A DNA stretch of 32,000 nucleotides. Source: Nostoc sp. PCC 7120 = FACHB-418. Lineage in GTDB: Bacteria; Cyanobacteriota; Cyanobacteriia; Cyanobacteriales; Nostocaceae. The stretch covers positions 2,010,001 through 2,042,000 of the forward strand of contig NC_003272.1 in NCBI RefSeq assembly GCF_000009705.1, given 5' to 3'. Shown in pieces: positions 102 to 26,116 of the stretch. The notes beneath the pieces are model-generated. The model ran no database searches and was not told where the DNA came from. It saw nothing but the letters and a program-made list of their open reading frames with translations. Positions within the stretch are counted from its first letter, which is position 1. Every line of letters begins with the position of its first letter. A program made the translations under genes and the position numbers.

Positions 102-186
102 TTGTTGAGTGTTACCAATTTTTAGTTTTCTAACTGTATATTCACCCATAAAAAGATTATACAGCATAAGGCTATATAATTATTGC

Positions 187-585
187 ATGAGGCGAAAATA
201 TAAATTTAACAACAATGTAGTCTACTCTTGTAAATACCATATAGTTTGGACTCCCAAGTACAGACGCAAGGTATTAAAAGATGGTGTTGATACACGGCTA
301 AAAGAACTGTTACAACAAATAGCAGCAGAAATTCAGGTTGAGATTTTGGAAATGGAGGTAGTAGAGGATCATGTCCACCTACTGATTGAGGTTGACCCGC
401 AATTTGGTGTCCACAAGGCAATTAAACGGTTTAAAGGCGCAACGTCTCGTTACCTACGCTTAGAGTTTCCACACCTGAAACAAAGACTACCTACGCTGTG
501 GACTAATTCTTACTTTGTCTCTACAGTCGGGGGCGCACCACTGGAGGCGGTTAAGGAGTACATTCAAAATCAGAAAAATACTTGA
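187..585 (+). CDS. tnpA: IS200/IS605-family Y1 (HUH) transposase TnpA
   Basis: ORF 109..585 trimmed to its first ATG (187; position 109 is GTG). It has the N-terminal YHIVWTPKYRRK block, an HUH motif in EDHVHLLIE, and the catalytic Tyr context NSYFVSTVGG. The ~132-aa size is typical of the family. Confidence 0.9.
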   Translation: MRRKYKFNNNVVYSCKYHIVWTPKYRRKVLKDGVDTRLKELLQQIAAEIQVEILEMEVVEDHVHLLIEVDPQFGVHKAIKRFKGATSRYLRLEFPHLKQRLPTLWTNSYFVSTVGGAPLEAVKEYIQNQKNT

Positions 586-14987: not shown

Positions 14988-17900
14988 CTAAAAATTGATA
15001 TCTCTAAACAAAAGAGTGAATCTATCTGCTAACACCTTCACATGAGGTTCTTCGAGCAAACTTCTGTGATTACCCGGCAGTTGGTAAACCCTCTCTACTA
15101 TTTGCTTATTCCAACCAAAAAGAGGAAAAAGAAAACGTAATAACTTGTAAGATAAAGACAAATCGCTAGCTAAAAAAAGGTGAATCTTGCCAGAGTAGCC
15201 TGGTGTAATACGAGGCTGCAAGTTCTTCTTTCTGGAAGAGGAGTTGTTTTTATTCTTTTTAGCGAGACTTTTGTGAGGCTGTTGTAAAAACAGTCTTATC
15301 TTGGGGAAGATGGGAAATATGTTAGCTAAATAGTAATGGAAAATCGGATCAGAACCAGGAAAATCTACTATTGTGAGGATAGCAACCTTTTTACCAAGAC
15401 GCTCAAGTTGTTTGGCAATTTCATAAGCCACTAAACAACCAAAAGAAAAACCACCCAAAATATAATCTCCTTTTGGTTGCAAGGTGAGAATGTCATTCAG
15501 ATGATAAGCCGCAAGTGCTTGGATATTTTCTTCTGTAGCTCTATGTTTAAAGACAGATAAACCTGATTCCATAAAGTAAATTGGTTGTTCCTGCCCAAGG
15601 TATGGTGCGAGTGGCAACACTTCATCTAAAGCATTAGCACACAAGAAAAATGGCTGTTTATTACCTTGATGATTAAAACTGACGATTAAGGACTCAGGTC
15701 TAGGTTTTTCTCCCTGACGGCCAGCATTAATGGCCATAAGTTTGCGATAATCTTCTGGATCAAATTGGGAGGAATTTAGAGTAAATGAAGATTCTAAATT
15801 CTCTGTGTGCCGAATTACCTGAGCAAGTTCTTTAATTGTTGGTACTTTAAAAAGAGTTGCTAGGGGCAGTTTTTTGCCCAAAGTTTTCTCAATTTGGGCA
15901 AATAGGCGTAATGCTAATAAAGAATGTCCTCCCAAATTAAAGAAATTATCGTTAACACCTATAGATGAAACACCCAAAACTTTTTCCCAGATTGTGATTA
16001 GTTGCTGCTCTAAATCATCTTGAGGAAAAAAATCTGTCGCGTTCGTGACTTGTCCAGGTGGATTGATATTTGATGAGATATGGTGAGTTAGTTGATTTTT
16101 CTGTTGCTGCCAATATTGTTCGTCCTTCATCAACATCGGTAGTGATCGAATACTCTGATTTGGATTGGCTAAAAGTTTTTGTAATAAGACCTGAAAGTCT
16201 TGGATTAACTGTTCAATTGTGCGTTCATTGAACAGATCACTATTGTATTCAAAGATTCCTGATAAGCCTGCGGTTGTTTCCCACATTAACAGAGACAAAT
16301 CAAATAGAGCAGTATTTTTCTCAATTGGTAGTGACTCTATGTTCAGTCCAGTTAGCTCTAGATTACTCATAGGTACATTCAGCAGATTAAATATCACCTG
16401 ATACCAGGGAGAGTAGCTTAAATCTCTGGTTGATTGTAGAGTAGGTAGCAGTTGCTCAACAGGAAAGTCTTGATGGATATAGGCTTCTAGAGTAGTTTGG
16501 CGTAAGTGCTGGAGTAAATTGAGAAAAGACGGATTCCCCGCTAGACTGATGCGAAGCGGCATAATGTTAGAGAAACAGCCAATGACAGATTCAATTTCGG
16601 TGTGGTTGCGGTTTGCAACTGCGGAACCTATTACCATGTCCTTTTGACTACTGTAGGAATGCAGTAAAATCACGAAACTTGCTAACAGTGTTATGAATAG
16701 CGTAGATCCAGACTGTTGGCTGAGGTTTTTTAGTTGCTGCGTTAGCTCTGAGTCAATTTGAAATGATTGGATACGTCCTTGAAAAGATTGTAATGGAGGG
16801 CGAGGGCGATCGCTTGGTAATTGCAGTAAAGGAGGGGCATCGGCTAGTTGATGACTCCAGTACTCTACTAAAGGGGTATATACCTCTGGCTGCTGAAACT
16901 GTTGCTGATGCCAAAGGCTAAAATCTCTGTACTGAAATAATGGTGGAGCTAGGGGACAAGGAGATTGTTGGGTATAAGCTGCGTAGATATCTGATAGCTC
17001 CTGGTTAAAGATTCCTAATGACCAACCATCGGCAACAATGTGATGTATCGTGATCATCAGTACATGATCTTTCTCTGTTAACCGCAGTAACCGAGCGCGA
17101 ATTGGTGGCTCTTGTGTCAGGTCAAATGGTTGTCTGGCTTCTGCATTGACTAACTGTTGTATCTCCATTTTCCCATCGTTCTCAACCTGCTGAATGGGAA
17201 TGGCAATAATTAATTCTGAAGCAATGTGTTGAACAGGTAGTCCTTCCAGAATGGGAAATGTAGTTCGCAGAGATTCGTGTCGTTGAATAATTGTGTTGAT
17301 GGCCTGTTCCAAACTCGAAATGTGCAGAATTCCTTTTAGCCGAAAGGCCATTGGTAGGTTGTAAATCGGTTTGAAACCAGATTTTTGTTCTGACACCCAC
17401 AATCGTTCCTGATATAACGACAGAGGTAGGTTATTTTGATGCGAAATGGGTTGCAATGCTGGAACACTCTGTTTAGGCTGTTGTTGCTGATCTGGCGATT
17501 CAATCCATCGACTCAACTCAGCAATTGTCGATGCCTCTAGAACTGCGTAAACAGGCAAATTGATTCCAAAACAGTCCCGCACGCGGGAAACAATCTGAGT
17601 GGAATGAAGGGAGTGTCCACCTACTTCTAAAAATGGTTGATAGATTCCTACTTGTGTACCCAAAACATCTGCCCAAATACTAGCTAGCCTTGCCTCAGTC
17701 GGGGTACGGGGGGAAACAAAATTGCTATCTGTATCTATGCAGATTTTATCTACATTCGGTAGAGCTTTTCGATCTACCTTACCGTTAGCATTAAGAGGTA
17801 ACTTCTCCAACGAGATAAAAGCCGATGGAATCATATAATTTGGCAATTTCTGTTGGAGAAAATGGCGTAATTCACTAGGGGCTACTGTGTTGCAATTTTC

Positions 17901-19337
17901 TTCCCTAGTAAAGTATGCTACTAATCGCTTGTCTGCTGGCTGGTATTCCTGTGCTAGTACAACCGCCGATCGCACTGATGGATGCTGTGCTAATATTGCC
18001 TCAATTTCACCCAATTCTACCCGGAAGCCTCTGATTTTTACTTGAAAATCAATTCGTCCCAAAAACTCTATTGTACCATCGGGTAGCCAGCGAACGCGAT
18101 CGCCTGTTTTATAGAGACGACTGTTGGGTTTATCACTAAAAGGATGGGGAATAAATTTTTCTGCTGTTAAGTCCGGTTTATTTAAATAACCCCGTGCTAA
18201 CCCATCACCTCCAATATAGAGTTCACCGGCAATCCCAATAGGAACTAATTGTAAAACATCATCGAGTATATATACTTGGGTATTCGCAATGGGACGACCA
18301 ATAGGAATTGAATCTTTTATCAGGTCATTAACAGTAATTTTATGGCAACAGGTAAAGGTTGTATTTTCCGTGGGGCCATAACCATTGATTAATTGACAAT
18401 TTGGTAATTCTTCTATGACTTTACTGACATGATACACTGATAAAACATCACCCCCTGCTAAAAGTTGTCGCAAGGATTTTAGATGTTCTATTTGCTCCTC
18501 TACCATTAAATTAAATAATCCGGCTGTTAACCATAAAGTAGTAACATGGTATTGTTTAATCGCCATACCAATTTCTTGCAAAGAAGGTATGTTGATTGGC
18601 ATCAATACCAATTTTCCGCCATTTAATAAAGCAGCCCAAATCTCAAATGTTGCTGCATCAAAGGCTATAGAAGCAAGTTGTAAGATAACCTCATCACAAC
18701 TAAAATTAGCATAGTTCGTATTTTTCACTAGTCGTACAACACCACGATGTTCTACGCAAACACCCTTGGGTTTACCTGTTGAGCCTGATGTGTACATAAC
18801 ATAGGCTAAATTGTGGGCAGTGACTTCACTACACAGAGAAATATCATCAGAAAAATCCGTTAAATTACTTTGGTTATCAATACAGATAGTTTGAATCTCA
18901 TCTGTAATTTTTTCCAGATAATTTAATTGAGATTCTTGAGTAATTAAAATGAACGCTTCGGCATCCTTTATGATAGTTTCCAATCGTTCTAAAGGAGCGG
19001 AAATATCTAATGGCAAATAAGCTCCCCCTGCTTTTAAAATAGCTAATATAGCAATAATTACATCAGGAGAACGTTCTAAATATAAAGCGACTAAAGTTTC
19101 TTTTTTTACTCCAATATGCCGCAAATAATAGGCAAATTGATTTGATTTATTTTCAAGTTCTTGATAGGTAATCTTCTGATTTTTATACTCAACTGCAACG
19201 GAGTTAGGTGTTGTTAATACTTGAATTCTAAATAATTCATGAATTGTAGAATTTCTAGGATAATCTGTTTTTGTATTTGTCCATTCTTCTAATAATTTAA
19301 ATCCTATAATTTGATTTGATGAAGTGGAAATAGTCAT
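14988..19337 (-). CDS. Nonribosomal peptide synthetase, domain order A-T-C-T-TE
   Basis: 1449-aa ORF with an ATG start.
- A-domain cores: LKAGGAYLPLD, YTSGSTGKPKG, FDAATFE, NGYGPTE, GELYIGGDGLARGY, YKTGDRVRW, GRIDFQVKIRGFRVELGEIE, NGKVDRKAL.
- Carrier motifs: GGHS at Ser576 and Ser1139.
- Condensation motif: HHIVADGWS at aa 765-773.
- Thioesterase: GFSFG (Ser1298) and GNH (His1424). Confidence 0.9.
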   Translation of the reverse strand: MTISTSSNQIIGFKLLEEWTNTKTDYPRNSTIHELFRIQVLTTPNSVAVEYKNQKITYQELENKSNQFAYYLRHIGVKKETLVALYLERSPDVIIAILAILKAGGAYLPLDISAPLERLETIIKDAEAFILITQESQLNYLEKITDEIQTICIDNQSNLTDFSDDISLCSEVTAHNLAYVMYTSGSTGKPKGVCVEHRGVVRLVKNTNYANFSCDEVILQLASIAFDAATFEIWAALLNGGKLVLMPINIPSLQEIGMAIKQYHVTTLWLTAGLFNLMVEEQIEHLKSLRQLLAGGDVLSVYHVSKVIEELPNCQLINGYGPTENTTFTCCHKITVNDLIKDSIPIGRPIANTQVYILDDVLQLVPIGIAGELYIGGDGLARGYLNKPDLTAEKFIPHPFSDKPNSRLYKTGDRVRWLPDGTIEFLGRIDFQVKIRGFRVELGEIEAILAQHPSVRSAVVLAQEYQPADKRLVAYFTREENCNTVAPSELRHFLQQKLPNYMIPSAFISLEKLPLNANGKVDRKALPNVDKICIDTDSNFVSPRTPTEARLASIWADVLGTQVGIYQPFLEVGGHSLHSTQIVSRVRDCFGINLPVYAVLEASTIAELSRWIESPDQQQQPKQSVPALQPISHQNNLPLSLYQERLWVSEQKSGFKPIYNLPMAFRLKGILHISSLEQAINTIIQRHESLRTTFPILEGLPVQHIASELIIAIPIQQVENDGKMEIQQLVNAEARQPFDLTQEPPIRARLLRLTEKDHVLMITIHHIVADGWSLGIFNQELSDIYAAYTQQSPCPLAPPLFQYRDFSLWHQQQFQQPEVYTPLVEYWSHQLADAPPLLQLPSDRPRPPLQSFQGRIQSFQIDSELTQQLKNLSQQSGSTLFITLLASFVILLHSYSSQKDMVIGSAVANRNHTEIESVIGCFSNIMPLRISLAGNPSFLNLLQHLRQTTLEAYIHQDFPVEQLLPTLQSTRDLSYSPWYQVIFNLLNVPMSNLELTGLNIESLPIEKNTALFDLSLLMWETTAGLSGIFEYNSDLFNERTIEQLIQDFQVLLQKLLANPNQSIRSLPMLMKDEQYWQQQKNQLTHHISSNINPPGQVTNATDFFPQDDLEQQLITIWEKVLGVSSIGVNDNFFNLGGHSLLALRLFAQIEKTLGKKLPLATLFKVPTIKELAQVIRHTENLESSFTLNSSQFDPEDYRKLMAINAGRQGEKPRPESLIVSFNHQGNKQPFFLCANALDEVLPLAPYLGQEQPIYFMESGLSVFKHRATEENIQALAAYHLNDILTLQPKGDYILGGFSFGCLVAYEIAKQLERLGKKVAILTIVDFPGSDPIFHYYLANIFPIFPKIRLFLQQPHKSLAKKNKNNSSSRKKNLQPRITPGYSGKIHLFLASDLSLSYKLLRFLFPLFGWNKQIVERVYQLPGNHRSLLEEPHVKVLADRFTLLFRDINF

Positions 19338-19591: not shown

Positions 19592-22500
19592 TTATGCGTT
19601 TCCTCCAGAGAAAACATGATCTGCAAGCCCCAAACCGTTGTTGTAATGCTCCAGGTTACTATTAATGGTGGTACCAGCATCTATCCCATAGGAAACATTG
19701 GTGTTGGATTTATAGGCATTTGGTAAACTCGATGCGCTGGAAATACCATAACTCCACCAAGTATCATTAAACCCTGGGCTAGTGACACTGCTACCAGTCA
19801 TTTGATGAATGGCTCCATCACCTTTCTTATCACCATTTTCATCTGGAGTTAAAGCTTGCAACCAATTGATACCTTCTTTGATATAGTATCGAGCATCCTT
19901 ATCAGTTGCATTAGCGGTGTCAATGGGGTTCCCCGCGACATAATTTAACCAACTAGCCACTAAAGAGCGACCGAGATCATAACGCTTATCTGCATTGGGA
20001 TGTGCGGAGGAATTAACAATCTGGCGTGCTTGATTGAGAGTATAGAAGAGGGTGTCTTCTCCTGCATCAGTTATACCGTTGCGGTTGAAGTCACCGATGA
20101 GTAACCCCACATGATACTGTCCAGTCACGGGATCAAGTACTTTTCCCGATTGGGCAGAGTTGGTATAAGGAGCGAACAGAAGGTCGCTAGTCAGTGTTTT
20201 TTGTGTTGGCTCGTTGCCTTGATTACCATCCCAGAACTTTTGCCACTCTGTATTTGCCCAGAAGTCCGGGGTACGCACACCAGGAGCAGCTATGACTGTG
20301 TTGGTATCAGTAGCACTATTATTGCTGGGGTTGGTATCAGTGAAACCATTGGGAGCAGTAATCGTAGCAGTATTGACCAGAGAAACGGGAGTTGCTTTGA
20401 GAACATCCAGATAGCGAATCTTGAAATTATCTTCAGGACTGGTATCTGTATCTAAAGCAGCGATGACAATGGTGTTACCAACATAATTACCTGCATTCAC
20501 ATCAGCCCAGCGATCGCTACTACTATTAGTAACGTTAGCTTCGTAGAACCCAAAACTGTTGAGAGTTGAGTCACTTAAATTCGTGAGAGGATTGTTAAAG
20601 TTACCAATCCAGACAGAGATATCACTATCCTTGAGGACATATTGCAGATAAGCTTTATCCAACACCACTGCTTCTGAAAATTGGAATAAGACGTAGTTAT
20701 CCCTTCCCCCAACGTTATCAACCACATGAGTGTTGTTACCGCCATTTCCTTCGCTACTGTCGGTAACACCTAAGCCACCAGTATAGCTACCCAGATAAGC
20801 CGCACTCCAAGCACCATTTGTGCCATCAACACGGCTAAAGGCTCTAGCTGTGACCGTAATTCCGTTTTGGGTGAATGTGCGTGTATTGCCATCTGTCCCA
20901 TCCAACGGACTATTGCCATCAAAGTCAAATCTGGTCGAACTACCTGTGGATGCTGCATTACTAACTACCGTTCCTGTGACTGTGTAGGTAATGCTGCTAC
21001 CCCCTGTCAGGGTGACGTGATCATTGATGTTGCCTGTACCACTGGCTTGGTTGTCTGTTGCACCTCCACTGGCCACGCTTGTCCAAGTGACGTTGGTCAA
21101 GTTGCTGGGGATGATATCACTCACCAGCGCATTGGTAGCAGTAATCAGACCATTGTTTCGCGCCACGATGGTATAGGTTATCTGCTGTCCTGGGGTGACA
21201 TTTGTTAAACCATCTGTTTTAGTGATTGATAAGTCACCAGATGGAGCAACGATAGTGTTGGTATCAGTAGCACTGTTATTGTTGGGGTTGGTATCAGTGA
21301 AACCATTGGGAGCAGTAATCGTAGCAGTATTGACCAAAGAAGCGGGAATGGCTTTGAGAACATCCAGATAGCGAAGCTTGAAATTATCTTCAGGACTGGT
21401 ATCTGTATCTAAAGCAGCGATGACAATGGTGTTACCAACATAATTACCTGCATTCACATCAGCCCAGCGATCGCTACTACTAGTAGTAACGTTAGCTTCG
21501 TAGAACCCAAAACTGTTGAGAGTTGAGTCACTTAAATTCGTGAGAGGATTGTTAAAGTTACCAATCCAGACAGAGATATCACTATCCTTGAGGACATATT
21601 GCAGATAAGCTTTATCCAACACCACTGCTTCTGAAAATTGGAATAAGACGTAGTTATCCCTTCCCCCAACGTTATCAACCACATGAGTGTTGTTACCGCC
21701 ATTTCCTTCGCTACTGTCGGTAACACCTAAGCCACCAGTATAGCTACCCAGATAAGCCGCACTCCAAGCACCATTTGTGCCATCAACACGGCTAAAGGCT
21801 CTAGCTGTGACCGTAATTCCGTTTTGGGTGAATGTGCGTGTATTGCCATCTGTCCCATCCAACGGACTATTGCCATCAAAGTCAAATCTGGTCGAACTAC
21901 CTGTGGATGCTGCATTACTAACTACCGTTCCTGTGACTGTGTAGGTAATGCTGCTACCCCCTGTCAGGGTGACGTGATCATTGATGTTGCCTGTACCACT
22001 GGCTTGGTTGTCTGTTGCACCTCCACTGGCCACGCTTGTCCAAGTGACGTTGGTCAAGTTGCTGGGGATGATATCACTCACCAGCGCATTGGTAGCAGTA
22101 ATCAGACCATTGTTTCGCGCCACGATGGTATAGGTTATCTGCTGTCCTGGGGTGACATTTGTTAAACCATCTGTTTTAGTGATTGATAAGTCACCAGCAT
22201 TTTGGTATATTCCCGCATCCAAAGTGAGATTATTTTCACCAGAGACAAGGGTGACAACCTGAGTTTTGCCAGTGCTGGGATTAGCATCAGAATCTACAAC
22301 ATCATTAGCGCCGACATTAGCTTGAGTAAACTGAAATCCTGCTGGTAGACCAGAGAATCCGACTTGATATTGTTGACCAGGTGTGAGTTCGGCAAAATTG
22401 TAATTGCCACCGGCATTAGTAGTTGTGGTAACGGTAGTATCGCCAATACCATTGATAATGCCATCTGCACCGCCACCAGTGAGGGTAACGCTTACACCTG

Positions 22501-25500
22501 CTACACCAACTTCTCCCGCATCTTGAATGCCGTTGTTGTTAACATCGTTGAATACGAAGTCTCCTAATGAAGCGGTTTTGTAGAACCCAGCATCAACTGT
22601 GGTGTCATTCTCTCCTGGCGATAGGTTAACTACATCGGAGATTAATCCATCACTATCAATGGCATCATTCCCACCTACATTCTGCGGACTAACACCGTTG
22701 AAGCCATTGGGTTGTACAAACTGGACTTTGTAATCTCCTGGTCGCAGGTTGGTAAAGGAATACAATCCATTACCATCTGTTGTGGTGGTGGCTATGACAT
22801 TTCCGGATGTATCCAAGAGCTTGACTGTGGCATCGCCAATACCTGTTTCTCCGGCATCTTGAATTCCATTTGCATTCTTGTCTTCAAAGACAAAATTACC
22901 CAAACTAGCTAGGGGTACTAAACCTGCATCCAGTGTCCCGTTGAATTCTCCTGATGCCAGGGTGAGTGTTTGGGTGATACCTGTGCTGACGTTGGCATCA
23001 CTATCTAATGCATCATTGTTTCCTTGGTTGGCAAGGCTGAAGTTGTAACCTGCTGGGGCGGTGAATTTAACTTGGTATTCTCCAGGGGTTAAGCCACTGA
23101 ATCCATAGCCACCATTTGCATCTGTTGTGGTTGTGGCTATGACATCCCCATTCGCTGGGTTGATGAGTTCGACTGTGACTCCCCCTACACCAATTTCTCC
23201 CGCATCTTGAATGCCATTGTTGTTAACATCGTTGAATACGAAGTCTCCTAATGAAGCGGTTTGATAGAAGCCGGCATCAACAGTGGTGTCATTTTCTCCA
23301 GGAGACAAGTTAACTACATCGGAGATTAATCCATCACTATCAATGGCATCATTCCCACCTACATTCTTGGGACTGATACCATCAAAGCCACTGGGCTGAA
23401 TAAACTGGACTTTGTAGTCTCCTGGTTGCAGGTTGGTAAAGGAATACAATCCATTACCATCTGTTGTGGTGGTGGCTATGACATTTCCGGATGTATCCAA
23501 GAGCTTGACTGTGGCATCGCCAATACCTGTTTCTCCGGCATCTTGAATTCCATTTGCATTCTTGTCTTCAAAGACAAAATTACCCAAACTAGCTAGGGGT
23601 ACTAAACCTGCATCCAGTGTCCCGTTGAATTCTCCTGATGCCAGGGTGAGTGTTTGGGTTAAACCTGTGCTGGGGTTGGCATCACTGTCTAATTCGTCGT
23701 TGCTGCCTTGGTTGGCGGTGGAGAAGATGTAGCCTGTGGGGGCTGTGAATCTGACTTGGTAATTACCTGGGGTTAAACCACTGAATTGATAGCCACCACT
23801 GCTATTTGTTGTGGTTGTGGCGATGACATCCCCATTTGTTGGGTTGATTAATTCGACTGTGACTTGACCAACTCCAACTTCTCCTGCATCTTGAATGCCG
23901 TTGTTGTTGGCATCTTTGAATACGAAGTCTCCTAATGAAGCGGTTTTGTAGAACCCAGCATCAACTGTGGTGTCATTCTCTCCTGGCGATAGGTTAACGA
24001 TATCAGAAACTAACCCATCACTATCAATGGCATCATTCCCACCTACATTCTGCGGACTAACACCGTTGAAGCCATTGGGTTGTACAAATTGGACTTTGTA
24101 ATCTCCTGGTCGCAGGTTGGTGAATGAGTACAGTCCATTATCATCTGTTGTGGCTGTGGCGATGATATTCTCGGCTGCATCTAAGAGGTTAACTGTGGCA
24201 TTGCCAATACCTGTTTCCCCTGCATCTTGAATGCCGTTGGCATTTTTGTCTTCAAAGACGAAATTACCCAAACTAGCTAGGGGTACTAAACCTGCATCCA
24301 GTGTCCCGTTGAATTCTCCTGATGTCAGGGTGAGTGTTTGGGTTAAACCTGTGCTGGGGTTGGCATCACTGTCTAATTCGTCGTTGCTGCCTTGGTTGGC
24401 GGTGGAGAAGATGTAGCCTGTGGGGGCTGTGAATCTGACTTGGTAATTACCTGGGGTTAAACCACTGAATTGATAGCCACCACTGCTATTTGTTGTGGTT
24501 GTGGCGATGACATCCCCATTTGTTGGGTTGATTAATTCGACTGTGACTTGACCAACTCCAACTTCTCCTGCATCTTGAATGCCGTTGTTGTTGGCATCTT
24601 TGAATACGAAGTCTCCTAAACTTGCCTTCCTATATATACCTGCATCAATAGTGCGATTGAACTCATTTGGATTCAGCTCGATGATTTGTGCCTGACCGGT
24701 GAGTGGGTCAGCATCAGAATCGGTTGTATCATTACCTTGATTGGACTGTGTAAAGACAAAACCTGTTGGTAGATTGCTAAAGGTAACTTTGTACTCTACA
24801 CCAGGCAAAAGAAGTGGAAATAGATAAGAACCATTGGCATCTGTGGTTGTGGTGACATTAGTGTCATCTGCTGTACCGATGACACCATCTTTGCCACCAC
24901 CAGTGAGGGTAACAGTAACACCTTCTACACCCGCTTCATTGGCATCCTGAACGCCATTAGCATTGAGGTCTTCCCAGACAAAATCACCCAAAGCAGCTGT
25001 CTTGAGAATATTAATGGTACTTTGTGCAATATTAGTTCCTGTTTGGTTAACAGGAACAACAATAATTCCGATATCTTGAGGTATGCCATCTTGGCTGATA
25101 CCAGGTACAAAGCCTCCACCATTTTGAAAGGCTGCTTCAACAATCTGATTGGCTCGGTTTTGGTTGTATGCGCCTACTGTACCTAATATGTTGGAAGGAA
25201 CTGTGTTCTCAAGCAGAGTCCAGATGGCTACCTGTATATCACCGGAGGTATAGGCACCGAGACCCCCTGAAGATTGTTTGCCTACGAATTTCTGGTTAAT
25301 TAACCAGTTAATCTCATCTAGGTTTTCGGGTTTATCAATTATCCCTGTTGGCAGAGGGTCATTATAGCTAGAATAAACTTGCGCTTGGTAGGATTGCCCT
25401 GGAACAATAGTTTGATTCGCATCAATGCAATAGGTGTCATACAGTCCATTGAGGAAATTACCGTTGGAGATTGTAAGGTCTACGTAGCTTGGTCCATCAC

Positions 25501-25591
25501 CACCAGAACCAGGATAAGCAACTACGATGTTTACGTTGTTGTCCGGTAATGTTAACTTTAAAGCTTGCAGCAGGTCATCAGTTAAAGACAT
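19592..25591 (-). CDS. Giant repetitive adhesin-like protein: TED-like head, 8 SdrD-B/CnaB-like repeats, 2 x (DUF11-like domain + unassigned domain), unassigned C-terminal domain
   Basis: ORF trimmed to the ATG at 25591, with GGAG 8 nt upstream (the ORF-track start at 25636 is TTG); 1999 aa.
- Eight repeats begin LGDFV(W/F)xDxNxNGxQDxxE and end DSDAxPxTGxT...DAG.
- Two copies of LSITKTDGLTNVTPGQQITYTIVARNNG... are DUF11-type.
- The N-terminus MSLTDDLLQALKLTLPDNN has no signal-peptide character.
- No LPXTG, PEP-CTERM or RTX nonapeptides were seen. Confidence 0.8.
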   Translation of the reverse strand: MSLTDDLLQALKLTLPDNNVNIVVAYPGSGGDGPSYVDLTISNGNFLNGLYDTYCIDANQTIVPGQSYQAQVYSSYNDPLPTGIIDKPENLDEINWLINQKFVGKQSSGGLGAYTSGDIQVAIWTLLENTVPSNILGTVGAYNQNRANQIVEAAFQNGGGFVPGISQDGIPQDIGIIVVPVNQTGTNIAQSTINILKTAALGDFVWEDLNANGVQDANEAGVEGVTVTLTGGGKDGVIGTADDTNVTTTTDANGSYLFPLLLPGVEYKVTFSNLPTGFVFTQSNQGNDTTDSDADPLTGQAQIIELNPNEFNRTIDAGIYRKASLGDFVFKDANNNGIQDAGEVGVGQVTVELINPTNGDVIATTTTNSSGGYQFSGLTPGNYQVRFTAPTGYIFSTANQGSNDELDSDANPSTGLTQTLTLTSGEFNGTLDAGLVPLASLGNFVFEDKNANGIQDAGETGIGNATVNLLDAAENIIATATTDDNGLYSFTNLRPGDYKVQFVQPNGFNGVSPQNVGGNDAIDSDGLVSDIVNLSPGENDTTVDAGFYKTASLGDFVFKDANNNGIQDAGEVGVGQVTVELINPTNGDVIATTTTNSSGGYQFSGLTPGNYQVRFTAPTGYIFSTANQGSNDELDSDANPSTGLTQTLTLASGEFNGTLDAGLVPLASLGNFVFEDKNANGIQDAGETGIGDATVKLLDTSGNVIATTTTDGNGLYSFTNLQPGDYKVQFIQPSGFDGISPKNVGGNDAIDSDGLISDVVNLSPGENDTTVDAGFYQTASLGDFVFNDVNNNGIQDAGEIGVGGVTVELINPANGDVIATTTTDANGGYGFSGLTPGEYQVKFTAPAGYNFSLANQGNNDALDSDANVSTGITQTLTLASGEFNGTLDAGLVPLASLGNFVFEDKNANGIQDAGETGIGDATVKLLDTSGNVIATTTTDGNGLYSFTNLRPGDYKVQFVQPNGFNGVSPQNVGGNDAIDSDGLISDVVNLSPGENDTTVDAGFYKTASLGDFVFNDVNNNGIQDAGEVGVAGVSVTLTGGGADGIINGIGDTTVTTTTNAGGNYNFAELTPGQQYQVGFSGLPAGFQFTQANVGANDVVDSDANPSTGKTQVVTLVSGENNLTLDAGIYQNAGDLSITKTDGLTNVTPGQQITYTIVARNNGLITATNALVSDIIPSNLTNVTWTSVASGGATDNQASGTGNINDHVTLTGGSSITYTVTGTVVSNAASTGSSTRFDFDGNSPLDGTDGNTRTFTQNGITVTARAFSRVDGTNGAWSAAYLGSYTGGLGVTDSSEGNGGNNTHVVDNVGGRDNYVLFQFSEAVVLDKAYLQYVLKDSDISVWIGNFNNPLTNLSDSTLNSFGFYEANVTTSSSDRWADVNAGNYVGNTIVIAALDTDTSPEDNFKLRYLDVLKAIPASLVNTATITAPNGFTDTNPNNNSATDTNTIVAPSGDLSITKTDGLTNVTPGQQITYTIVARNNGLITATNALVSDIIPSNLTNVTWTSVASGGATDNQASGTGNINDHVTLTGGSSITYTVTGTVVSNAASTGSSTRFDFDGNSPLDGTDGNTRTFTQNGITVTARAFSRVDGTNGAWSAAYLGSYTGGLGVTDSSEGNGGNNTHVVDNVGGRDNYVLFQFSEAVVLDKAYLQYVLKDSDISVWIGNFNNPLTNLSDSTLNSFGFYEANVTNSSSDRWADVNAGNYVGNTIVIAALDTDTSPEDNFKIRYLDVLKATPVSLVNTATITAPNGFTDTNPSNNSATDTNTVIAAPGVRTPDFWANTEWQKFWDGNQGNEPTQKTLTSDLLFAPYTNSAQSGKVLDPVTGQYHVGLLIGDFNRNGITDAGEDTLFYTLNQARQIVNSSAHPNADKRYDLGRSLVASWLNYVAGNPIDTANATDKDARYYIKEGINWLQALTPDENGDKKGDGAIHQMTGSSVTSPGFNDTWWSYGISSASSLPNAYKSNTNVSYGIDAGTTINSNLEHYNNGLGLADHVFSGGNA
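20298..22197. repeat. Near-perfect tandem duplication, period 957 bp (319 codons), inside the adhesin gene
   Basis: Copy 1 (20298..21240) matches copy 2 (21255..22197). A handful of substitutions are confined to the first ~230 nt, and I found no mismatch from about 20531..21240 against 21488..22197. The off-frame ORFs in the track are duplicated exactly at a 957-nt offset. Confidence 0.95.
22574..24625. repeat. Three tandem copies of a 684-bp (228-codon) two-domain unit (SdrD-B-like repeats 2-7)
   Basis: The marker string ...CATCTTGAAT(T/G)CC(A/G)TT... recurs at 22853, 23537 and 24221 (period 684). Long stretches are identical at the nucleotide level between copies. Confidence 0.9.
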
Positions 25592-26116
25592 CAAAAGGCT
25601 CCGCAAAATTGGATTTAGCGAACCTAAGCGAGTCAAGCAAAAATTAAAATCTATATAGGGAACAAATATCTTTAGGAGATCATCTCAGTAATTTCTAAAA
25701 TTTTGTCTCTTTAAAGAATTTTTTAATCAAAACAACATAAATCAGGAATGTCATTGACACCAAAAAATTTTGTAATCTCCACAAAAATAGTGTATTCCAA
25801 GAGCGTTGGTGAGAATTAAAAGCGCAGTAAATTTTGTCAATCAGTTAAAATACTCAAAAAATTAAATTAAGAATTGATAAATCTAACCAAGTCTGGATCA
25901 GGTTCAGACTAAATATGATATGAACAGGTCTTACTCACCCAGGTTGTCTGTTGAGACTGGGTGTAAGGCTCTTAAAAATTTATACTCCTACACCCTTGTC
26001 TAAACTCTTGATTTTTCGTTTTCATGGGTAAGTCCTAAATTATTGTTGTTTGCATCTCACTAGGGTAAGCAAAGCTATACTGCTCAAAAATGCTCTAATT
26101 TTTAGGCTATTAATAA

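Follow-up and report, generated by a model that had tools for sequence, protein, structure and literature searches.

A 32,000-nucleotide stretch of the Nostoc sp. PCC 7120 genome (contig NC_003272.1, positions 2,010,001 to 2,042,000; hereafter the window) carries, on its minus strand, a gene for a 1999-amino-acid protein whose N-terminal head of about 200 residues is very likely homologous to the thioester domains (TEDs) of Gram-positive adhesins. The best reading of this head is that of a new thioester-domain variant extending across diderm bacteria and archaea. Judging from the sequence and from a structural model, we consider it rather probable that Cys55 and Gln190 of the head form an internal thioester and that the head acts in covalent adhesion. 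The homology and fold resemblance to TEDs, the conservation of the residues involved and the distribution of the family are directly supported by the data.

The only Pfam family matched by the isolated head was TED (PF08341), with 22.8-22.9 bits against a cutoff of 22 and a library-wide E-value of 1.2e-4, in agreement with a sequence-only reading of the window that had placed a TED-like head on this protein. No match to TED_2 (PF20610) was obtained for the head in the Pfam scan. Among 41 diverse copies of the domain from the family, 14 matched Pfam TED with E<0.01, the lowest value being 3.6e-7, and none matched another Pfam family, while the relative P0008, which carries two heads, reached 56 bits. 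Since TIEpLS20, a tested TED in which Cys68 is required for function (PMC8092201), scores just 23.6 bits on the same model, marginal PF08341 scores are normal for real TEDs. At the sequence level, homology to the TED superfamily appears well supported between the Cys and helix α3, and the resemblance appears to be more than chance, given the sole family match, the single Cys and motifs that are kept in more than 1,600 clusters.

A structural model was obtained with AlphaFold 2 (AF2) from A2, an alignment of 41 sequences; it reached a predicted local distance difference test (pLDDT) score of 93.4 and a predicted template modelling (pTM) score of 0.90. An alignment of five sequences gave a pLDDT of 37 and an unusable model. 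The modelled head is composed of six strands (residues 20-25, 37-42, 49-55, 67-74, 174-181 and 192-196) and three main helices (88-98, 116-127 and 144-157), preceded by an N-terminal helix (3-14). Cys55 closes the third strand, and the middle helix bears Gln120 and Trp124. This order of elements agrees with the published TED topology, in which strand C carries the Cys, helix α2 the TQxxΦW motif and the final strand, Q, the bonding Gln (PMC6194298). Because the modelled linker between helix α3 and the terminal hairpin spans 16 residues, leaving no room for a β-sandwich of about 75 residues, the predicted topology of the head is class-I-like, without the β-sandwich insert of class II TEDs. A Foldseek comparison with 350,542 PDB chains returned FNE (5dcq; E 4e-3, prob 0.93) as the best match, followed by chains B and A of CpTIE (5a0d; prob 0.69, TM-score 0.41-0.47), and all later matches had a prob of ≤0.08; the match of the model to TEDs thus appears specific but weak. 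Covariation was analyzed by mean-field direct coupling analysis (DCA) of 274 family copies (effective number of sequences, 234), which independently recovered contacts of helix α1 with helix α3 and the sheet order A-D-P-Q-B-C. The pair 55-190 ranked 94th of 16,653, which is weak evidence, as both columns are almost invariant.

Codon-by-codon translation bore out the three motifs previously noticed in the head, namely Tyr54-Cys55-Ile56-Asp57 (25421-25432), EINWLINQKF (residues 93-102) and Asp118-Ile-Gln120-Val-Ala-Ile-Trp124 (25220-25240; Gln120 codon CAG, 25232-25234). Cys55 is the sole cysteine among the 1999 residues, and the relatives L002, L042, L055 and L063 are single-Cys proteins as well. 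The conservation of Cys55 and Gln120 expected among homologues was also found: across the 274 family copies, Cys occupies position 55 in 271, Gln120 is about 98% conserved and Trp124 more than 99%. Of 161 copies, at least 156 keep each of Asn90, Asn95 and Asn99, and 146 keep Gln100. The invariant columns of A2 are only four, Cys55, Trp124, Pro163 and Gln190, and the Gln190 column holds Gln in 254 of 256 aligned copies. In known TEDs, the last β-strand carries the bonding Gln within a weak ΦQζΦΦ motif, and the spacing between Cys and Gln in solved structures is 129-153 residues (CpTIE 138-267, SfbI 109-261, PnTIE 94-247; PMC4450167, PMC6194298). The Cys55-Gln190 spacing of 135 residues falls within this range. 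Gln190 is most likely the thioester partner of Cys55, on the basis of position and conservation rather than a residue-level alignment to a solved TED. Gln172 was also considered as a partner and ruled out, as this position is Asp or Glu in most copies.

In the proposed mechanism, the thiol of Cys55, at the end of strand C, would attack the side-chain amide of Gln190 on folding, releasing NH3 and leaving a buried Cys-Gln thioester, and in helix α2 Gln120 and Trp124 would be packed onto the backbone of the Cys, like their counterparts in known TEDs. The thioester could then be attacked by a primary amine of the target (from a protein lysine, polyamine or amino-sugar polymer, for instance), and the resulting amide to Gln190 would attach the 1999-residue fibre covalently to this target. 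Behind the head, the fibre would consist of the eight SdrD_B repeats of the Ca2+ type, the two DUF11 modules and the C-terminal domain. We infer from sequence the formation of the bond, Gln190 as its partner, the export of the protein and what it binds.

An alternative, which we regard as unlikely, is that the head has the TED fold without a thioester and binds its ligand non-covalently, Cys55 being a free thiol or a structural residue. The evidence for the bond is entirely homology-based, with marginal scores against canonical TEDs. Several results weigh against a thioester-forming TED. Scored within the full-length protein, the Pfam TED match drops to 18.5 bits, below the cutoff of 22, and the NCBIfam model TIGR03934 (TQXA_dom), which the sequence-only reading had associated with the head, matched neither the head at E≤1 nor ten relatives at E≤0.01. 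Sequence and profile searches of PDB sequences with the head, the alignments A1 and A2 and the P0008 head gave no TED, and the TM-scores to the three TED chains are below 0.5 (0.37-0.47; E 4e-3 to 0.09). DSSP places Gln190 two residues ahead of the last strand (192-196), not inside it. The motifs deviate too: Ile or Val stands where canonical TEDs carry Thr before the motif Gln, and the family consensus, W-C-V-D, lies slightly outside [YFL]C. Finally, the window protein has no signal peptide, LPXTG motif, recognisable anchor or secretion signal, and the 32-kb window contains no secretion genes, including those of a type I secretion system (T1SS). In addition, Ser replaces the Cys in the relative P0116, which suits a head without a thioester. 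The failure of the PDB sequence searches is explained by the divergence of TEDs, which is too great for such searches; the TED of TIEpLS20 itself likewise retrieved no solved TED from PDB sequences. A homologue search from TIEpLS20, aimed at a canonical TED profile, returned one protein, and when A2 was aligned with the single TIEpLS20 sequence by hhalign, the two QxxΦW motifs were paired, but not significantly (prob 0.4%). Against a domain without a thioester, by contrast, stands the fact that Cys55 and Gln190, the residues universally required in TEDs, are both among the four invariant columns in a family whose columns show 37% identity on average. Both were lost jointly in L051 (Blastocatellia), which keeps Gln120 and Trp124, and the presence of a sole Cys in an extracellular-type protein of this length argues for a chemical role.

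The family of the head proved to be large and widely distributed. A word-indexed search found four homologues, all of them stand-alone secreted proteins of about 200 residues. An exhaustive profile search yielded 1,640 representative clusters at E≤1e-3, 244 of which were found at E≤1e-30, and a scan of one genome per species identified 302 loci. Among the best 79 of the 302 loci, which the taxonomic breakdown covers, about 22 are cyanobacterial, ranging from Nostocales to Crocosphaera and Prochloron, 12 belong to Flavobacteriaceae, 11 to archaea (Haloferax, Methanocella, Thermoplasmatota, Promethearchaeota and Hodarchaeota) and 9 to Bacteriovoracaceae/Bdellovibrionales. Myxococcales, Planctomycetes, Chloroflexi, Patescibacteria and others are also represented, and just two of the 79 loci come from classically Gram-positive lineages. 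PF08341 was annotated in 2 of the 64 homologues listed with precomputed annotation, and all those among the 64 that carried a name from their source were called hypothetical, uncharacterized or generic repeat proteins.

The commonest architecture in the family is a secreted protein of about 350 residues (P0021, P0028, P0031 and P0033, and many loci such as L004, L009 and L013), in which the TED-like domain lies between an N-terminal β-region of about 130 residues and a short C-terminal 'ETAW...W..YF' segment. By analogy with Cpa, these members may represent a TED inserted into another domain. The Flavobacteriaceae loci L066, L072 and L076-L078 encode neighbouring pairs of domain-bearing lipoprotein paralogues, in which one member ends in a very basic, Lys/Arg-rich tail (…KKWRKHYGRKKFKCSS). 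In the cyanobacterial proteins L042, L043, L054 and L014, which combine the head with SdrD_B repeats, we observed a conserved C-terminal region, FDLNGDG...SELFGG...FDSNGDG...IDMVDVYFQVA, that is absent from the window protein and may, judging from its sequence, be a Ca2+-binding or secretion module.

Members outside cyanobacteria carry Sec, lipoprotein or Tat-like signals, and many of them have extra Cys pairs resembling disulfides, for example at the covarying columns 110 and 145; an extracytoplasmic domain is consistent with these export signals and apparent disulfide pairs. In every cyanobacterial member, the domain begins at residue ~3-8 without a signal peptide. Type I secretion of the cyanobacterial members may reasonably be inferred, so that the head is possibly the cell-proximal end of the fibre. 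This leads to a further explanation, in which a T1SS would export the protein with its C-terminus leading and the head would serve as a self-anchoring or retention module, tethering the fibre to the envelope of its producer through the thioester or through its fold; we find this doubtful, and equally doubtful the corresponding role of the C-terminal domains as the outward-facing binding end. The head-first layout without a signal peptide, as opposed to the signals found in other phyla, would suit such a module, as would the Cys-poor, acidic composition and the richness in Ca2+-binding repeats that the protein shares with T1SS substrates. An N-terminal retention module holds LapA and MpIBP, two T1SS adhesins, and an RTX-like GGxGxD element is found at the end of the cyanobacterial paralogue P0008/L047. 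However, the window protein contains no RTX repeats and, as noted above, no recognisable T1SS signal, nor does the window hold T1SS genes. Furthermore, every TED protein characterised so far has a distal head that binds foreign targets, and the stand-alone secreted members of 200 residues have nothing to anchor. Directly after the head lies K-T-A-A-L (residues 197-201; 24989-25003, minus strand), which is kept in L001 (Anabaena minutissima) and L003 (Cylindrospermum). It resembles, without matching, the di-alanine TAAG site where LapG releases T1SS adhesins; the likeness is probably a coincidence.

Returning to the proposed thioester, the sequence-only reading had paired Cys55 with Gln120 of D-I-Q-V-A-I-W, and this assignment was not supported: we consider such a bond very improbable. 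Gln120 is highly conserved, and the equivalent Gln of known TEDs adjoins the Cys, so that a model would probably place the two residues close together. However, the Gln and Trp of the TQxxΦW motif on helix α2 hydrogen-bond the Cys backbone and are unnecessary for the thioester, both being dispensable for the bond in Cpa, and all solved TEDs use the Gln of the last strand (PMC4450167, PMC6194298). Moreover, four copies of the domain with Cys55 and Gln190 intact have K, E or A in place of Gln120. By analogy, the Gln120-Trp124 motif probably packs against the backbone of Cys55 and is not the bond partner. The spacing of 65 residues, which had seemed too short, is explained because it spans the distance from the Cys to the TQ motif and not to the bonding Gln. 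The correction is of practical relevance, as a Q120A substitution would probably leave the bond intact, with the risk of a false negative reading. A Cys-dependent enzyme of the peptidase, transglutaminase or amidase type with Cys55 as nucleophile, to which the invariant Cys followed by the conserved Asp57 and several conserved Asn and Gln residues might point, can be virtually dismissed, since the domain has no conserved His anywhere and no enzyme-family match, and its specific fold matches are to TEDs only.

The coordinates of the gene and its parts are compiled in Table 1. The open reading frame (19592..25636, minus strand) comprises 2014 codons from an upstream TTG start. Translation from the ATG at 25589-25591 gives the 1999-residue protein; a GGAG lies 8 nucleotides upstream of this ATG, and the start Met is common to the orthologues L001 and L003.

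Table 1. Features of the Nostoc gene for the TED-like protein (positions within the window)
Feature	Position	Strand	Remarks
Whole gene	19592..25591	minus	1999 residues plus stop; acidic; rich in Gly, Thr, Asn and Asp; one Cys; no N-terminal signal peptide
TED-like head, residues 1-199	24995..25591	minus	Pfam TED 22.8 bits; AF2 model; top three Foldseek PDB matches are TEDs
Cys55 codon TGC in Y-C-I-D	25427..25429	minus	End of strand 49-55; candidate thioester cysteine; Cys in 271/274 family copies
Helix α1, residues 88-100, P-E-N-L-D-E-I-N-W-L-I-N-Q	25292..25330	minus	Subfamily signature; not a canonical TED motif
Gln120-Val-Ala-Ile-Trp124	25220..25234	minus	Counterpart of the TQxxΦW motif, helix α2
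Gln190 codon CAA in A-Q-S-T-I	25022..25024	minus	Start of the last β-strand; most likely partner of Cys55 (position, conservation)
Stalk of eight SdrD_B (Ca2+-binding B-repeat) domains, residues 200-1129	22205..24994	minus	Pfam E 2.7e-282
Module 1, residues 1130-1448	21248..22204	minus	DUF11/CLIPPER domain with XDP1-like insert of ~190 residues
Module 2, residues 1449-1767	20291..21247	minus	Near-identical copy of module 1
C-terminal 232-residue domain (APGVRTPDFWANTEW...)	19595..20290	minus	No family match

The repeat stalk foreseen behind the head was confirmed as consisting of SdrD_B domains. The comparison with the architecture of Gram-positive adhesins stood in part: the head-plus-stalk layout is the same, but the protein has no signal peptide and no LPXTG motif, and its stalk is built of SdrD_B and DUF11/CLIPPER domains, the latter an isopeptide domain that was described recently (PMC12617251). 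Within the stalk, SdrD_B repeats 2-7 are arranged as three tandem double units of 228 residues (residues 325-1008; 22568-24619, minus strand) with 89-92% DNA identity, a pattern that implies, at the sequence level, repeat expansion and possibly variation in stalk length. Modules 1 and 2, of 319 residues each, are identical at 309/319 residues and 938/957 nucleotides, which suggests a very recent duplication or gene conversion. Their inserts resemble the exosortase-dependent surface protein XDP1 (NF041927) at 102 bits, below the cutoff of 125, and no PEP-CTERM was found in the protein carrying them. Neither the XDP1-like insert nor the C-terminal domain matched a Pfam family (for the latter, none at E≤1). 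The C-terminal domain is also present in Nostoc parmelioides (L002), and L001 and L003 have different C-terminal ends behind the same head and stalk.

The window neighbours of the gene are a nonribosomal peptide synthetase (NRPS) gene and housekeeping genes. The single-module NRPS (A-T-C-T-TE, 1449 residues; 14988-19337, minus strand) lies 255 bp downstream on the same strand, and no functional link between it and the adhesin gene is evident. An open reading frame for an IS200-like Y1 transposase (109-585, plus strand; Pfam Y1_Tnp, E 3.4e-45) is situated at the window edge. No conserved partner genes or secretion systems were found near the window gene or near two relatives (Haloferax and Bacteriovoracaceae).

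The founding survey of thioester domains described them "exclusively in Gram-positive bacteria" (PMC4450167), and thioester adhesins continue to be presented as Gram-positive in a 2026 preprint. Full-text literature searches found no paper placing thioester domains in cyanobacteria, archaea or Gram-negative adhesins, so that, within the literature searched, a TED-like head in a cyanobacterium is, as had been supposed, an undescribed case. We tentatively propose, at slightly less than even chances, that the head represents a third, undescribed class of TED widespread outside Gram-positive bacteria, which in cyanobacteria would perhaps act in reverse, bonding the fibre to the envelope of its producer independently of sortase. 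This class may span Cyanobacteria, Bacteriovoracaceae, Myxococcales, Flavobacteriia, Planctomycetes, Chloroflexi, Patescibacteria and Archaea (Haloferax, Thermoplasmatota and Asgard), and if it does exist, covalent adhesion by a 'chemical harpoon' would be a general prokaryotic strategy. Should the bond form, covalent adhesion would reach diderm bacteria and archaea, including cyanobacteria, free-living or symbiotic, that form mats and colonies or live in symbiosis with plants or in lichens. More than 1,600 "hypothetical protein" clusters would gain a testable chemical function, and small (~190 residues), disulfide-free thioester modules would become available for protein-ligation tools.

In comparison with known systems, the window protein is, like the giant T1SS adhesins LapA, MpIBP and SiiE, a very long, acidic, Cys-poor and Ca2+-dependent repeat fibre without a signal peptide. 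The N-terminal module of those adhesins, however, is a retention plug and not a TED, and neither an RTX block nor a recognised C-terminal signal was found in the window protein; we treat this likeness as a resemblance only. Complement C3 and α2-macroglobulin thioesters (CGEQ) share with the proposed bond an internal Cys-Gln thioester that reacts with nucleophiles. They differ in their unrelated α/α-toroid fold, in a Cys and Gln three residues apart and in proteolytic activation, and no homology was detected between them and the Nostoc head. To our knowledge, bacterial α2-macroglobulins are the only type of thioester protein in Gram-negative bacteria. Class II TEDs (BaTIE 6FWV, SaTIE, EfmTIE86 and TIEpLS20; PF20610 TED_2) have the same Cys and TQxxΦW-type motifs as the Nostoc head, lack helix α0 and have a similarly marginal PF08341 score, as seen for TIEpLS20. 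By contrast, they carry a seven-stranded β-sandwich of about 75 residues between α3 and strand P (slipknot), where the Nostoc head has its short linker. With respect to class I TEDs (SfbI 5A0L, CpTIE 5A0G/5A0D, PnTIE 5A0N, FNE 5DCQ and Cpa; PF08341), the strongly conserved PENLDxVNW(I/L)xNQ helix is specific to the family of the Nostoc head, which apparently lacks helix α0 and has an extra N-terminal helix. The hosts of this family are diderm bacteria and archaea, its cyanobacterial members have no Sec signal, LPXTG is absent, and the Nostoc stalk is formed by SdrD_B rather than isopeptide CnaB or ester domains. The features shared with class I are the aromatic-C-Φ-D motif at a strand end, a three-helix bundle whose middle helix bears QxxΦW, and a ΦQζΦΦ-like motif with a conserved Gln in the region of the C-terminal strand, the Cys and Gln being ~130-150 residues apart. 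Also shared are the six strands and three helices, as predicted for the Nostoc head, without a β-sandwich insert and the N-terminal position on a repeat stalk.

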